In this document: positions 11,282 through 15,983 of the stretch, in pieces
How positions within the stretch are numbered: the first letter of the stretch is position 1
How the letters are laid out: each line of letters starts with the position of its first letter
Source of the DNA: a virus
Taxonomy: Duplodnaviria; Heunggongvirae; Uroviricota; Caudoviricetes
Virus record (IMG/VR): IMGVR_UViG_2778261540_000003
Strand: one strand, 5' to 3'
DNA length: 64,000 nucleotides
The notes under the pieces: generated by a model
What the model saw: only the letters and a program-made list of their open reading frames with translations
The model's database searches: none
What the model was told of the DNA's origin: nothing
Translations under genes and position numbers: made by a program

Positions 11282-11944
11282 ATGCTCGCCTGGAGGCTGA
11301 ATTTGCAGCTGAGAATGAACATACCACCCAGGGCGACTAGGACTGTTTTTTGTGTCGGTAGCGGTCCGTCACTCACTCGTGAGGACTGTGCTGCTATAGA
11401 AAAAACTGGCTGTTCAATCATCGCGGTTAACAATTCCTGGCAGATGTTCGATGACATTTATGCTTTATACGCCGGTGATTTGTCATGGTGGAAGCAATAC
11501 GGATCCACCATACCGGGAGGGAGATTCCGCAAAGTGACAGCCAACCTGGCGGCGGCGAAATCATTTTCGTTGGAGTACAGGCGATATTGTGGACCGGCGG
11601 AAGGGGTAAATAGCGGCGCGCAGGCTATCAGTCTGGCTGCTGAATCAGGGGCTGAAGTAGTGGTATTAGTCGGCTATGACTGTTCTCTGCAAAACGGCCT
11701 TCATTGGCATGGCGCGCACCCTCAAGCACTACGGAATCCAACGCAGGTGTCTATTTCAAAATGGCAACAGCAGTTCCTGGATACCCGCAAAAAACACGCA
11801 GATTTACATATTTTGAATGCAAGTAGGAGCAGTGCAATTCAATGTTTCCCAAGAATAAATTTAGAGGCAGTGATCGCGTTATTATCGTCGGCAGTGGCCC
11901 AAGCGCCGCAAACTTTGTTGCGCCGCGCGGAGTGCCGATTATAG
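11282..11944 (+). CDS. GT42/DUF115-like (sialyltransferase-fold-like) protein, paralog 1
   Basis: motifs VGSGPSL..IIAVNN..YAGD..LVGYDCS; true start uncertain; 3-prime end overlaps paralog 2 by about 100 nt in another frame. Confidence 0.5.
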   Translation: MLAWRLNLQLRMNIPPRATRTVFCVGSGPSLTREDCAAIEKTGCSIIAVNNSWQMFDDIYALYAGDLSWWKQYGSTIPGGRFRKVTANLAAAKSFSLEYRRYCGPAEGVNSGAQAISLAAESGAEVVVLVGYDCSLQNGLHWHGAHPQALRNPTQVSISKWQQQFLDTRKKHADLHILNASRSSAIQCFPRINLEAVIALLSSAVAQAPQTLLRRAECRL

Positions 11945-12468
11945 CGGTCAATGGGGCCATCGACTGGCTTAACCGCGCTTCTTATTTTTTCACCCTTGAT
12001 CCATCCCCAGACAATATGCGGCGCGTTGGTCGTGGCCGCCGTCGCCGTGGTGTTTGTTATTGCATGGCACTACCCGATGTTAAAGAACGTGAAGTCAGAG
12101 ATGGCGTTCTGTGCTTCCGTCGTGTGGCTGAACGCGGCATGGAGCCAAAAAATACGAATTCTCCCGAGTGGTGGGCGTGGCGCTGGTCCGCACATTTCGG
12201 CCTTTGCGAAGATGAGAATGAAATTGCCAGCGGCAATAGTGCATATGGTGCTCTGAACCTGGCTTTCCATATCGGATTCAAACATGTAGCTCTGGTGGGC
12301 GTTGACGCTACGCAAGAACTACGCGTTCACTCCGGCGGCACGCCAAAAAATCTAAGTCACCTGCCTTTGTTATTCCAGTCTGCGCGTGAACAGATTGACG
12401 TTGTTTCATGCGGGAAAATGGGAGGTATTCCGCAGATGACTCTTAAAGAATGGCTGAAGAATACATGA
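11842..12468 (+). CDS. GT42/DUF115-like protein, paralog 2
   Basis: motifs [22 protein letters not shown] parallel to paralog 1. Confidence 0.55.
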
Positions 12469-13142
12469 TGGCACCCACAATTTATCACCGTATCGACGGT
12501 ACCAAATACAGGAATGTCTGGGTTGTTGGTGATCTGCATGGTTGCTACACCAGACTGATGTCCGAACTCCATCGTGTGGATTTTGACCCGGCGCAGGATT
12601 TACTGATATCGGTCGGCGACCTTATCGATCGCGGTACTGAAAATGTCGAATGTCTGGAACTATTGCAGATGCCCTGGTTCAGGGCAGTGATGGGGAACCA
12701 TGAGCGGCTGATGATTGATGCGTTAAGTCCAGATGGCAACGTGAATAACTGGCTAATGAATGGCGGACAATGGTTCTTCATGCTGGACACTGATCAGGAA
12801 ATATTAGCCTGGGCGCTGGTGGAGCTGGTAAAGCGTCTGCCCTATATCATTGAGTTGAACACGGGGCAAGAAACTATCGTTATAGCCCATGCCGACTATC
12901 CGGATAATGAATACCAATTCGGTAAGGAGGTGCCGCTTTTCAACGTTGTCTGGGCGCGCGAGCGTATCAGTGATTCGATGGATGATATTGGTGGCGAAAT
13001 TTCGGGCGCAGATCGTTTTATCTTTGGTCACACTCCGGTGAAAAGCCCGAAGACATTCTGGAATCAGCAGTATATCGACACTGGTGCCGTATTTTGCGGA
13101 AACCTGACATTGATGAAAGTGAAAGGTGATGGTGCAGCATGA
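12450..13142 (+). CDS. ppp: Ser/Thr protein phosphatase, lambda-PPase/metallophosphoesterase family (P1 Ppp)
   Basis: GDLHG, GDLIDRG and GNHE motifs in canonical order. Confidence 0.85.
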
Positions 13143-13840
13143 AGATTGCTTTAGTTTTTCGCTCTGGTGGTGACTATAACGCTTCCGATGTGCAGTGGCT
13201 GGTTAATCAACTGCCAAAAGGCTATGAAATTATTTGCCTGACAGACCTGAAGCGTTTACATGTACCTGGCGTCAAAGTTGTCCCATTGATCAACCAGTGG
13301 CAAAAGTGCCGTGGCTGGTGGGCGAAAATCGAGTTGTTCCGACCGGATATAACCGATGATCTGTTCTATCTGGATTTGGACACGGTTATTGCCGGTGATA
13401 TACGCCCAATCCTAGAGCATCCACCAACCAGCTTCACCATGCTTAGGGATTTTTACCATCCACAATATCGTGGCAGCGGTGCCCTGTGGATACCAAATAG
13501 TGTTAAAGCGCATATCTGGAGTTCATTCTGGCAAGATCCGGAAGGTTGGATTTCTCGTTGTGTCACTACTGAGTGCTGGGGTGACCAGGGGTTCTTACGA
13601 AAGGTTATGGGCGATGATACACCAGCATTTCAGGATCTGTATCCAGGATGGTTTGTAAGTTACAAGGCCGATGTTGTGGAACCTGGTTCAAAATATGCGA
13701 GCGCGCGTTACTCCAGGGGGAATGGGGCATTACCAAAAGACTGCCGAATAATCTTTTTCCACGGCAAACCGCGACCTCGCGAAGTGTCAGAGGATTGGCT
13801 TCCCCTTATCAGCTCATTTTTTGAGCGAGAATCAGAATAA
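13139..13840 (+). CDS. Hypothetical protein with DxD-like motif (possible nucleotide-sugar transferase)
   Basis: 233 aa; [11 protein letters not shown]; start overlaps ppp stop. Confidence 0.55.
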
Positions 13841-13841
13841 T

Positions 13842-13858
13842 ATTGCTCTAATAATTCC
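13842..13858 (+). promoter_or_regulatory. C1 repressor operator
   Basis: ATTGCTCTAATAATTCC; approximate coordinates. Confidence 0.6.
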
Positions 13859-13897: not shown

Positions 13898-13907
13898 TTA
13901 GAGCAAT
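13891..13907 (-). promoter_or_regulatory. C1 repressor operator (inverted orientation)
   Basis: reverse complement ATTGCTCTAATAAAAAA. Confidence 0.55.
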
Positions 13908-14141
13908 CTACAAGGTGCACTATGTGGCCATTCCGACGGAAATATCACTACTGGCTGATCGCCTTTGTTACGCCGACCGGCGGTATCAGGCATGTCATCA
14001 CCAGGTATCGCAACAAGAGACTCACCTTAGCCAGAATTTTACAGGCTGCCATAGGTGAGGGACTGGATACAAATTGCGTAGTCCTTCCTCCTTCATACTT
14101 AGGAAAAATGACCGAAGCACAAGCTAATACGGAACTTTGAA

Positions 14142-15404
14142 ATGAGCACTTCAGCACAAAACCAATCAATCGAAAATGTATCTATCCCTGATGTCCTGAA
14201 TGCCGGTATCCCGGCCATTATCCAGAACATCCGGGCCGCGCAACGCCGCGTTAGTTGTGATGACCTCACAGCACGTTTTTTTGATAATGCGGTTCAGTCA
14301 GCGGAGATGCTTCACGCACAGCTTATTGATGTTTATAACGCAGAAGCTGATAGCCATAACTCCCTGGTAGATGCAGCTGAAAATATGCAGTTGGATCTCG
14401 GTCTGAAGGGTAAAGAAATTGAAGAGCTTCAGCTGCAAATTGAACATTTGAAACGCCAGCAACAGGACGCGATCGACGATGCGACGCATGACGCCAACCA
14501 GCGTGCTGATAATGCCGAACGTATAAGCATTGAGCTGGAAACAAAACTCAATGAAATGACCGCGATGGTTGAACTGCGGAACTCACAGATTTCAACGCTA
14601 AAATCTCAATATAAAGAGATCATGAAACTTGATCCTTTTAACCTTGAGAAACGCTATAACAAAGCTAAAAGCGAGCGACAGGAACTGCGTAAGCAGGTCG
14701 CCGACCTTAACCAACAGCTCAAAAAAACTATTAAAGATGCAAGCGAAGCGCGCGTGGCATTTGCTAATAAAAAAGCAGAGGTTACCGCGCTGGTTAATGA
14801 GAATGCCAAATTTGCGACGCTCAAGAAGGAAATGTATGGCATTACTGAGCGCCGTTTCCCTGCAAGCAAACTTCATCCGACGTTAGGGCAAATCTCCTTC
14901 TTCCCGCGCCTCCTGGCTTATGGGATCTCATCGCCTAAAGAGTTCAATAACGAGCGTCCTTATATCGTTTCTAAGCTGGACTTTGCTTATCAGTTCTGCT
15001 GCGACATGGGCTATGCCATTGATATCCGAATCAACGAATGGTTGATGCCAAACTTCCAGCCGCTGGCCATTTTCCGCGAGTTCCAGCCGGAAGGTTGGGT
15101 AGAGTTCTTCCATGAATTGATCTGTAAAGAGATGGAAAGCCGCCGCCCGGAACTGGTCCGCCGTGTCGAGTGGGCGCAAGAGGTTATGTTGGCAGATGCA
15201 GAGCTGCCGTTCGAACCGGAATTTATTGATGATCTGGCAACTAAAGGGCTGCATACCCTGTTTGATGTGGTTACCCGCCGTCATGAGCAGTTGGTTGTCG
15301 AATTGGGTTTAGAGGAAACAGCGGCAAGAAGACTTCTCGATGTTTGCTATGCACGTAGCGATGCATGGGAAAAAGAGAACGGCGGCACTATTTACGTTCG
15401 CTGA
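14142..15404 (+). CDS. Hypothetical protein with N-terminal coiled coil
   Basis: 420-aa ORF preceded by operators and terminator. Confidence 0.6.
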   Translation: MSTSAQNQSIENVSIPDVLNAGIPAIIQNIRAAQRRVSCDDLTARFFDNAVQSAEMLHAQLIDVYNAEADSHNSLVDAAENMQLDLGLKGKEIEELQLQIEHLKRQQQDAIDDATHDANQRADNAERISIELETKLNEMTAMVELRNSQISTLKSQYKEIMKLDPFNLEKRYNKAKSERQELRKQVADLNQQLKKTIKDASEARVAFANKKAEVTALVNENAKFATLKKEMYGITERRFPASKLHPTLGQISFFPRLLAYGISSPKEFNNERPYIVSKLDFAYQFCCDMGYAIDIRINEWLMPNFQPLAIFREFQPEGWVEFFHELICKEMESRRPELVRRVEWAQEVMLADAELPFEPEFIDDLATKGLHTLFDVVTRRHEQLVVELGLEETAARRLLDVCYARSDAWEKENGGTIYVR

Positions 15405-15476
15405 CAGTTACAGTGTCACTTTTAATGCTGGTGGAGTGCGCCCACCAGCATTTTTTTCGTCCAATGAGGAGGGCAT

Positions 15477-15983
15477 TTGAGTATTTTCAATAAACACGCA
15501 CACCAGGAACGTCCGTATATCGTCATAGTTGATATTGATGGAACAATATCAGAGGCAACTGAAGACAGACTGCATTTGCTTCCGCCACCAGGTAAAGGTG
15601 CATTAACAAAGGACTGGAACGAGTTTAATCTCGCCTGTGACACCGATACTCCCATCACTCCAGTTATTGATATGGTGCGCCAGTTATTTAACGTTTACAC
15701 GGTCTGGTTTGTAACCGGGCGCTGTGAGATCGCAAGGGATAAAACACTAGCCTGGCTGCGGAAGTACGTAACAAACGGGGCTGAGCCTTTGCTATCTATG
15801 CGTCCTGCCACCGATGACAGAAATGACGGCCCAGCAAAGATTGATCTCCTTAAGAAAATTGGTCTAAGTAAAATCGCGTTCGCGCTGGAAGATAAGATTG
15901 AAGTGGCGCGTGTTTTCAGGAGGCACGGCGTGCTTACGTTAATGGTCAGGGAGTATGAAAACGCGCTTCTCCATCAACAATGA
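15477..15983 (+). CDS. HAD-superfamily phosphatase-like protein
   Basis: 168 aa; DxDGT-type motif VDIDGTI near N-terminus. Confidence 0.55.
   Translation: MSIFNKHAHQERPYIVIVDIDGTISEATEDRLHLLPPPGKGALTKDWNEFNLACDTDTPITPVIDMVRQLFNVYTVWFVTGRCEIARDKTLAWLRKYVTNGAEPLLSMRPATDDRNDGPAKIDLLKKIGLSKIAFALEDKIEVARVFRRHGVLTLMVREYENALLHQQ

Follow-up and report, generated by a model that had tools for sequence, protein, structure and literature searches.

A conserved three-gene cassette of predicted glycosyltransferases in phage P1 and unrelated phages of Gram-negative bacteria

Gene content of the region

We analyzed a 64,000-nucleotide stretch of DNA from a virus of the class Caudoviricetes (IMG/VR record IMGVR_UViG_2778261540_000003; hereafter, the window) and focus on positions 11,282 to 15,983, which hold the genes pmgO, pmgP, ppp, pmgQ, pmgR, pmgS and pap in this order, all on the plus strand. 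Our main subjects are pmgO (11282-11944; 220 aa), pmgP (11842-12468; 208 aa) and pmgQ (13139-13840; 233 aa), which recur together in many phages. The surrounding 4.85 kb (11150-16000) is 99.0-99.8% identical to the P1-type phages vB_EcoM-Ro157c2YLVW, SJ46, P1 and P7, and at least 80% of it is covered by 19 of 21 matching records. The P1 annotation (AF234172, NC_005856) transfers one-to-one to the window at an offset of 68310, with the same gene calls, including a 103-nt overlap of pmgO and pmgP; the offset was checked by locating operator O26 at 10218-10234. All open reading frames of a first-pass annotation, made by a model from the sequence alone, were present in the order that it described. 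That annotation had taken the whole interval for one modification module, a view that did not survive comparative genomics, which ties together pmgO, pmgP and pmgQ only.

Some of this ground is already labeled in public resources: the PHROG family of pmgO (PHROG 4603) carries the name ‘alpha-2,3-sialyltransferase’ and that of pmgQ (PHROG 1962) the name ‘glycosyltransferase’, and RefSeq NC_005856 has both labels. A literature search found pmgO, pmgP and pmgQ only in tables of essentiality or expression, with their function nowhere discussed, and returned no paper tying DUF115 to phage glycosyltransferases. What is new here is the evidence that the three genes make up a glycosylation unit that is widespread, inherited together and in some cases fused.

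PmgO and PmgP are paralogs with a predicted Maf/GT42-type fold

The first-pass annotation had proposed that PmgO and PmgP are paralogs sharing the motif series VGSGPS, IIAVN, YAGD and LVG(Y/V)D. Three of these motifs are indeed found in both proteins; the fourth, YAGD, is confined to PmgO, with FTLD in its place in PmgP, leaving only the Asp in common. Pairwise BLASTP similarity is marginal (E 0.003 over 36 residues), each protein cross-matches the PHROG family of the other, and hhalign comparison of the two family profiles gave a probability of 98.1% (E 1.2e-13 over 163 columns). By these comparisons, PmgO and PmgP are real, old paralogs. The PmgP family alone comprises 733 representatives at 50% identity (E <=1e-3) among 1.84 billion proteins. 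Searching viral contigs with the PmgP profile returned near-identical P1 copies only, and diverse homologs came from genome contigs.

AlphaFold2 models were built from family alignments for PmgO and PmgP separately, MAFFT having placed the PmgO family on the PmgP half of a natural fusion protein, P0051 (P and L numbers are our labels for proteins and loci). The PmgP model reached a predicted local distance difference test score (pLDDT) of 94.6 and a predicted template modeling score of 0.92, and the PmgO model a pLDDT of 87.1. For both models the best fold match was the Maf flagellin glycosyltransferase (5MU5; paired fold-comparison values of 13.4 and 14.5), followed by the archaeal HPPK MptE (8SD5; 12.5 and 11.3) and the GT42 sialyltransferase Cst-I (2P56; 10.7 and 10.8); next came SteA, GT29 sialyltransferases and thiamin pyrophosphokinases. 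The models thereby assign both proteins the predicted fold of the central catalytic domain of Maf. Many uncharacterized phage proteins of about 200 aa in BFVD have the same fold.

The likeness to Maf (DUF115/PF01973, e.g. Magnetospirillum 5MU5) extends to a G-x-GPS loop and an NS(G/A)...G-x-D motif. Maf proteins are about 600 residues long, with flanking acceptor-binding domains, whereas PmgO and PmgP are bare catalytic domains of about 200 residues that form a diverged pair; unlike Maf, they score below the PF01973 threshold and have no pseudaminic or legionaminic acid pathway alongside. The nucleotide-binding motifs also align with those of the GT42 enzymes Cst-I and Cst-II of Campylobacter jejuni (2P56, 1RO7/1RO8). 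When a combined PmgO and PmgP profile was compared with PDB sequences, Cst-II ranked first and the top matches were all sialyltransferases, although the Cst-II match is below significance; separate profiles of PmgO and PmgP gave nothing significant against the same sequences (PmgO against GT42, E 1.3-1.4). In the HMMER alignment, GSGPS falls on GNGPS of Cst-II (residues 8-12) and NSA..LVGVD on TSG..LSGID (residues ~131-154), segments that we take to be those holding CMP-sialic acid (CMP, cytidine monophosphate), and the corresponding residues vary little or not at all in either the PmgO or the PmgP family. Invariant histidines are H141, H143 and H146 in PmgO and H173 in PmgP; the catalytic histidine of Cst-II is His188.

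The suggestion in the first-pass annotation that the two proteins resemble GT42 or DUF115 enzymes was thus borne out for fold and motifs, while the sequence matches stay below family thresholds. At the level of fold that reading is correct, yet it was already in public annotation, where the likeness to GT42 is the source of the sialyltransferase label. To our knowledge, E. coli K-12 lacks CMP-sialic acid (CMP-Neu5Ac), and as a guide to substrate the label is therefore almost certainly mistaken. We suggest that ‘alpha-2,3-sialyltransferase’ be read as the name of a fold, and note that ‘morphogenetic protein’ is unsupported for pmgO, pmgP and pmgQ.

PmgQ is a predicted GT8-like transferase

The first-pass annotation had flagged PmgQ as a DxD-motif protein. 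An alignment of 29 family sequences shows invariant D79-L80-D81, G148-D149, S174, K176, H208-G209 and P213, forming the motifs DLD (79-81), GDQ (148-150) and HG..P (208-213). Compared with PDB sequences, the family profile matched Skp1 alpha-galactosyltransferase (6MW5, E 1.9e-7), glycogenin-1 (E 3e-3) and GlyE (5GVV, E 6e-3), and the DxD, GDQG and H-G-(K/P)-P-(W/R) motifs of the profile align with those of glycogenin and the Skp1 enzyme. Both motifs and significant similarity therefore place PmgQ with GT8, in which the DxD, GDQG-type and C-terminal H-x-G-x-P elements are common to glycogenin, 6MW5, 5GVV and WaaO/WaaJ. PmgQ differs from these enzymes in being shorter and minimal (about 230 residues) and in scoring below the PF01501 threshold: P1 PmgQ has no match to PF01501, and seven of the 29 family members match it weakly (best E 0.026). 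By sequence, PmgQ is best described as a GT8-like, retaining DxD glycosyltransferase.

pmgO, pmgP and pmgQ form a conserved unit

Across many Gram-negative lineages, phages and prophages that are unrelated to one another keep the three genes together as a conserved unit. Besides P1-like plasmid prophages (L007, L009, L096) and a divergent P1 relative in which the cassette lacks ppp (L004), they occur in a lambdoid prophage of Citrobacter rodentium (L011; phage phiNP), between the lysis cassette and terminase; in an HK97-like prophage of Pseudomonas (L013), flanked by the major capsid gene and the genes for head-tail connectors; in a Zhongshania prophage (L104), in the same position directly after the major capsid gene; in a Commensalibacter prophage (L105), directly after TerL; in a Nitratireductor prophage (L116), in the cluster of head genes, with the portal gene about 0.9 kb upstream; and in a phage with a P22-type portal (L003). 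In this last locus, as in L011, L109 and L012, the cassette follows the lysis cassette. Contiguous or near-contiguous copies are also present in the 116-kb coliphage IME392 (L118), in jumbo phages of Xanthomonas and Stenotrophomonas, including XacN1 (L119), and in Brevundimonas and Sinomicrobium prophages, and shorter or partial loci with two of the three genes in Methylophilaceae, Microbulbifer and Nitratireductor. The cassette usually lies in late or head-gene clusters of these phages. Phage D6 has no cassette. All hosts seen are Gram-negative bacteria that make lipopolysaccharide (LPS).

Natural fusions join the genes in several combinations: O-P (P0051, 376 aa), P-Q (P0220, P0288), Q-P (P0269, P0300) and, in XacN1, a methyltransferase with PmgQ. 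Some loci carry additional genes, namely an extra GT-A-like protein with weak PF03407 matches (L003, L013, L103, L105, L106), an extra GT-B enzyme (IME392) or methyltransferases of FkbM, TylF, Methyltransf_24 or Methyltransf_23/25 type, and these optional genes are all of glycan-tailoring types. In L004, and in L005 and L006 of the same lineage, the block also encodes a KdsB equivalog (TIGR00466, 270 bits against a cutoff of 155). KdsB is the synthetase of the CMP-activated form of 3-deoxy-D-manno-octulosonic acid (Kdo), and its gene in L004 (Logan SRR14843460) is one of three translationally coupled genes (together at 13846-15892) between the pmgS-like gene and downstream genes, the others encoding a 271-aa protein without a family match and a pap homolog. 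A phage-borne kdsB is unusual.

This gene company bears on a different reading of the fold, in which PmgO and PmgP would be small-molecule pyrophosphokinases or other nucleotide-dependent enzymes of the MptE/thiamin-pyrophosphokinase branch rather than glycosyltransferases. Their sole Pfam match is indeed named MptE-like. However, the best match of both proteins is the Maf glycosyltransferase, their profile finds nothing but sialyltransferases at the top of its PDB matches, with alignment of the CMP-binding motifs, and the two genes always occur in linkage with a GT8 gene, in some cases as a fusion, and often with extra glycosyltransferases and sugar-type methyltransferases and once with KdsB; we consider the kinase reading very unlikely.

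Two further contexts concern the neighbors of the genes. In Pseudescherichia-like chromosomes (L098-L102; L099 2235-14873) and in Serratia plymuthica (L012 8001-10442), homologs of PmgO, PmgP and PmgQ adjoin adhesins, including a 1177-aa inverse autotransporter (IAT_beta with seven Big_1 domains) and other Big_1/RCC1 proteins, and these chromosomal cassettes may have been domesticated to glycosylate adhesins. In XacN1, PmgQ is fused to a TylF-type O-methyltransferase (ORF373; L119 7630-8946), and the product of the next gene (ORF372; 8954-12220), 1088 aa long and with a PKD (Ig-like) domain, is by its position a candidate acceptor.

The pmgO-pmgP overlap is conserved

The overlap, which the first-pass annotation had placed at 11842-11944 in different frames, is exactly 103 nt long, the reading frame of pmgP being -1 with respect to that of pmgO. 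Both the ATG of pmgP (11842) and a Shine-Dalgarno-like AGGAG (11823-11827) lie within pmgO. The conserved core of PmgO (residues ~20-198) ends in ...FPRxxLE..., and the sequence for its unconserved tail (199-220) also codes for the conserved N-terminus of PmgP with the GSGPS loop. In nine of ten adjacent loci pmgP is in the -1 frame. Where the frame could be read, the stop of PmgO lies at, or 21-81 nt beyond, the start of the PmgP motif in seven of nine loci and falls short of it in the other two, by 6 nt (L104) and 17 nt (L013). On these patterns the overlap is ancestral, and we regard it as conserved translational coupling rather than an error.

The first-pass annotation had left room for a hidden frameshift, and the overlap could in principle be either a sequencing frameshift or a programmed -1 frameshift site that makes a PmgO-PmgP fusion like P0051. 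The frame of pmgP fits such a site, as do two in-frame X_XXY_YYZ heptamers in the overlap, T_TTC_CCA (11845-11851) and A_AAT_TTA (11857-11863), and the natural single-chain protein P0051 exists. An error is contradicted by the recurrence of the arrangement in 19 independently sequenced P1-type genomes and, with other overlap lengths, in relatives at 50-72% protein identity. As to programmed frameshifting, A_AAT_TTA is unconserved, being missing from L007 and L009; T_TTC_CCN is explained by the dual coding of C-F-P and M-F-P and is missing from L004; the chance of any heptamer in 34 codons is about 13%; and pmgP has its own ATG with the AGGAG upstream. No conserved heptamer was found beyond what dual coding dictates, and a stimulatory element was sought by inspection only. 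We regard a frameshift of either kind as highly improbable. In L004, an A_AAA_AAT stands one codon upstream, and the heptamers are not consistently conserved.

Gene callers that forbid overlaps shorten PmgP homologs to 173-176 aa (L004 10630-11151; L011 8600-9130). When the start is chosen after the pmgO stop, the GSGPS nucleotide-binding loop is lost from the called PmgP, a systematic annotation error that arises because the overlap is conserved. At its other end, pmgO overlaps the small open reading frame pmgN (11185-11340, plus strand; P1 annotation and sequence) by 59 nt at its annotated start. This start (11282) adds about 11-20 N-terminal residues that have no counterpart in homologs and are modeled at a pLDDT of 54-58; the true start may be the ATG at 11315.

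A possible donor and acceptor for the cassette

Our favored explanation, which we hold tentatively and with a little less than even confidence, is that pmgO-pmgP-pmgQ is a three-enzyme glycosylation cassette common to P1 and many unrelated Gram-negative phages and working as follows. PmgQ would be a GT8-type, metal-dependent (DxD) retaining transferase that adds a hexose from a uridine diphosphate (UDP)-sugar. PmgO and PmgP, as diverged copies of a minimal Maf/GT42 catalytic domain acting together, probably as a heterodimer, would transfer ulosonic-acid residues from a CMP-activated sugar, most probably CMP-Kdo of the host. As acceptor we consider a late-made protein most likely, a virion protein above all, and the product would be a short acidic glycan that P1 can do without when growing on laboratory E. 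coli K-12.

For PmgO and PmgP, a CMP-activated ulosonic acid is suggested by fold and motifs. No nonulosonic-acid biosynthesis genes were found in any cassette examined, the LPS-producing hosts always make CMP-Kdo, and KdsB is encoded in L004, L005 and L006, all of which favors CMP-Kdo; likewise, P1 has no sugar-biosynthesis genes and its host has one CMP-ulosonic acid only, which points to host CMP-Kdo. These gene-level clues give CMP-Kdo a slender case as the donor. WaaZ, the Kdo III transferase of E. coli K-12, uses CMP-Kdo, and PmgO and PmgP show a weak motif likeness to it in the N-terminal loop and an A-x-x-L-A...G-x-D segment. An NCBIfam scan gave no match for PmgO or PmgP, and P0051 scored 20.3 bits against the WaaZ model TIGR04437 (cutoff 200). 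Membership of PmgO and PmgP in the WaaZ family is, on these comparisons, unsupported.

For the acceptor, several lines converge on a late-made and possibly virion protein. Maf acts in the cytoplasm on a protein bound for extracellular assembly (flagellin), using CMP-activated ulosonic acids; the solved relatives of PmgQ are protein-directed; the cassette is placed among late and head genes, which in P1 takes the form of a position behind the late promoter LPpmgL and a C1 operator; and adhesin and PKD-domain proteins are its neighbors. In mycobacteriophages, phage-encoded glycosyltransferases reportedly glycosylate the virion (capsid and tail proteins), and their genes are said to be non-essential. 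The likeness of the O-P-Q cassette to that system lies in phage-encoded, non-essential genes and in position, within the head-gene cluster of several relatives and adjacent to genes for capsid, terminase or portal (L013, L104, L105 and L116). The mycobacteriophage enzymes belong to other glycosyltransferase families, act in Gram-positive-type hosts and have demonstrated glycans, whereas for P1 the glycan is a prediction.

Dispensability is supported by published genetics. Among 29 single-gene knockouts of P1, 24 plaqued normally and had unchanged anti-restriction activity (Gonzales et al., 2022, PMC9024508), and pmgO, pmgP, ppp, pmgQ, pmgS and pap are non-essential both by CRISPR interference (CRISPRi) and in that deletion survey (table in Piya et al., 2023, PMC10695390), so that neither single deletions (PMC9024508) nor CRISPRi (PMC10695390) of the cassette genes gave a plaque defect. 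These knockouts fit the contention of the first-pass annotation that this is modification rather than classical morphogenesis.

Several observations weigh against our favored explanation. PmgO (23.4 bits) and PmgP (20.9 bits) fall below the 34.6-bit gathering score of PF01973, which is passed by the fusion homolog P0051 (44.6 bits), and several relatives have a precomputed PF01973 match; the Cst-II match of the combined profile is not significant (E 0.05); and hhalign comparisons of the family profiles with the single K-12 WaaZ sequence gave non-significant probabilities of 24% and 11%. KdsB is confined to one lineage (L004, L005 and L006), and in some phages the cassette adjoins genes of nucleotide metabolism, namely ribonucleotide reductase (XacN1, L111) or DNA ligase (IME392). 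Glycans go unmentioned in the P1 virion proteome paper, whose newly found virion-associated Pmg proteins are PmgC and PmgG only, and in two recent cryo-electron microscopy papers on P1, which also leave unassigned density unmentioned; glycans on P1 virions or on components of P1-infected cells have been reported by nobody. We know of no precedent for protein-linked Kdo.

Much of the same evidence can be read as remodeling of a host envelope glycolipid, likeliest the LPS core, with PmgO and PmgP acting like WaaZ and PmgQ like WaaO/WaaJ, so that the P1 receptor (the terminal core glucose) would be masked on infected cells and debris. This is the main rival to our favored explanation, and we judge it unlikely. 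The LPS core is the P1 receptor, all hosts seen produce LPS, the module of a P1 relative includes KdsB, P0051 weakly matches the WaaZ models TIGR04437 and PF27901, and GT8 includes LPS core transferases, with hhalign placing the DxD and H-G-x-P of PmgQ on the motifs of WaaO. However, none of these similarities is significant (10% for the hhalign comparison with WaaO), and the significant solved relatives of PmgQ are protein-directed, with no GT8 enzyme of LPS or lipooligosaccharide synthesis in its match list. Repression in the lysogen and late expression in the lytic cycle would allow new LPS little time to be displayed on the cell, a position in a head-gene cluster is atypical of surface-conversion genes, and no signal of membrane association was noted. 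If the acceptor were LPS, the cassette would be a lytic-phase device for receptor masking.

In XacN1, L111 and IME392 the cassette is close to genes for ribonucleotide reductase or DNA ligase, which could also be taken to favor glycosylation of phage DNA as an anti-restriction hypermodification, an option raised in the first-pass annotation that we find extremely improbable. P1 DNA is cut by ordinary restriction enzymes, and anti-restriction in P1 relies on the Dar proteins. The module has no base-hydroxymethylating or other priming enzyme, the fold relatives of its products act on glycans and proteins rather than DNA, and deletions left anti-restriction activity unchanged (PMC9024508).

Returning to the glycosylation cassette, its most specific form, in which a minimal Maf-like PmgO/PmgP heterodimer and PmgQ attach a Kdo-containing glycan to virion or secreted Ig-like-domain proteins in P1 and several hundred sequence-distinct relatives, is in our estimation quite unlikely. 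Were it true, phages of Gram-negative bacteria would have their first virion glycosylation system, and protein-linked Kdo its first example. A virion acceptor would mean that Gram-negative phage particles may be glycosylated far more often than assumed, with a bearing on immunogenicity, stability and recognition by defence systems. P1 is among the phages most used in genetics, and about a dozen of its pmg genes are without a function; the existing P1 deletion library allows a clean experiment on a glycan that depends on pmgO, pmgP and pmgQ.

Regulation and neighboring genes

The cassette is transcribed from the late promoter LPpmgL (10185-10203, plus strand; transferred from P1 78495-78513), which lies upstream of pmgL and drives pmgL to pmgQ and beyond. 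Upstream of pmgN-pmgO-pmgP-ppp-pmgQ is the C1 operator Oppp (Op83; 11124-11141, minus strand; P1 annotation 79435-79451), which is degenerate, with four mismatches to the operator consensus that we used. Two more operators, OpmgRa (13842-13858, plus strand) and OpmgRb (13891-13907, minus strand), found both by pattern search and in the P1 annotation, form the border between the unit containing the pmgO-pmgQ cassette and the pmgR-pmgS unit, and OpmgT lies at 15983-15999 (P1 annotation and pattern search). Because C1 operators flank these units and a late promoter lies upstream, the block is repressed in the lysogen and expressed in lytic growth. In the whole window, the 17-bp C1 operator consensus occurs 13 times at three or fewer mismatches, against 0.3 sites expected by chance, with clusters at ~30.5-33.1 kb; these sites are the immunity-controlled regulon of P1. 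Two upstream products of the same late operon have recognizable folds that the annotated name ‘putative morphogenetic function’ hides: PmgL (10292-10537) matches a DksA-like zinc-finger PHROG, and PmgM (10540-11118) is a VRR-NUC nuclease or a protein like Holliday-junction resolvases.

Within the interval, ppp (12450-13142; 230 aa) encodes a lambda-type Ser/Thr phosphatase, as the first-pass annotation had recognized (lambda phosphatase 1G5B, E 1.5e-94 over residues 11-229; PF00149 (Metallophos), 59 bits against a cutoff of 21.5). The gene stands between pmgP and pmgQ in the P1 lineage only and is missing there in L003, L004, L011, L013 and others; the cassettes of the P1 relative L004 and of every non-P1 phage lack it, and phage D6 has ppp but no cassette. 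ppp is an insertion specific to the lineage, outside the conserved cassette.

Downstream of the cassette, pmgR, pmgS and pap are found in P1-like genomes only. The first-pass annotation had missed pmgR (13922-14140; 72 aa; open reading frame and PMC9024508), a true morphogenesis gene in an interval that it had assigned wholly to modification: pmgR is among only five newly found essential genes of P1, and its deletion leaves heads and tails unjoined (PMC9024508). Its protein has no detectable homology to any protein of known function. Upstream, pmgN is essential by CRISPRi and non-essential by deletion (PMC10695390, table). The non-essential gene pmgS (14142-15404; 420 aa) encodes a coiled-coil protein of P1-lineage genomes, and PADLOC returned no defence-system match other than coiled-coil noise for PmgS.

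The last gene, pap (15477-15983; 168 aa), encodes a HAD phosphatase of the polynucleotide-kinase/phosphatase type, which agrees with the HAD-type assignment made at first pass: it has a DIDGT (HAD DxDxT) motif at residues 19-23 and a PF25109 score of 45.9 bits (cutoff 27.6), and its nearest solved relative is Pnkp1 (4XRP, E 6.7e-4). The coupling to kdsB in L004 had raised the idea of a KdsC-like Kdo-8-phosphate phosphatase, which is unlikely, the nearest relatives being polynucleotide 3'-phosphatases. pap is probably unrelated to the cassette. In some P1-like plasmids, a Rv2179c-like 3'-5' exoribonuclease and a 101-aa protein are inserted between pmgS and pap (L007 12098-12646), which hints that pap is tied to RNA-end processing rather than to sugar metabolism.

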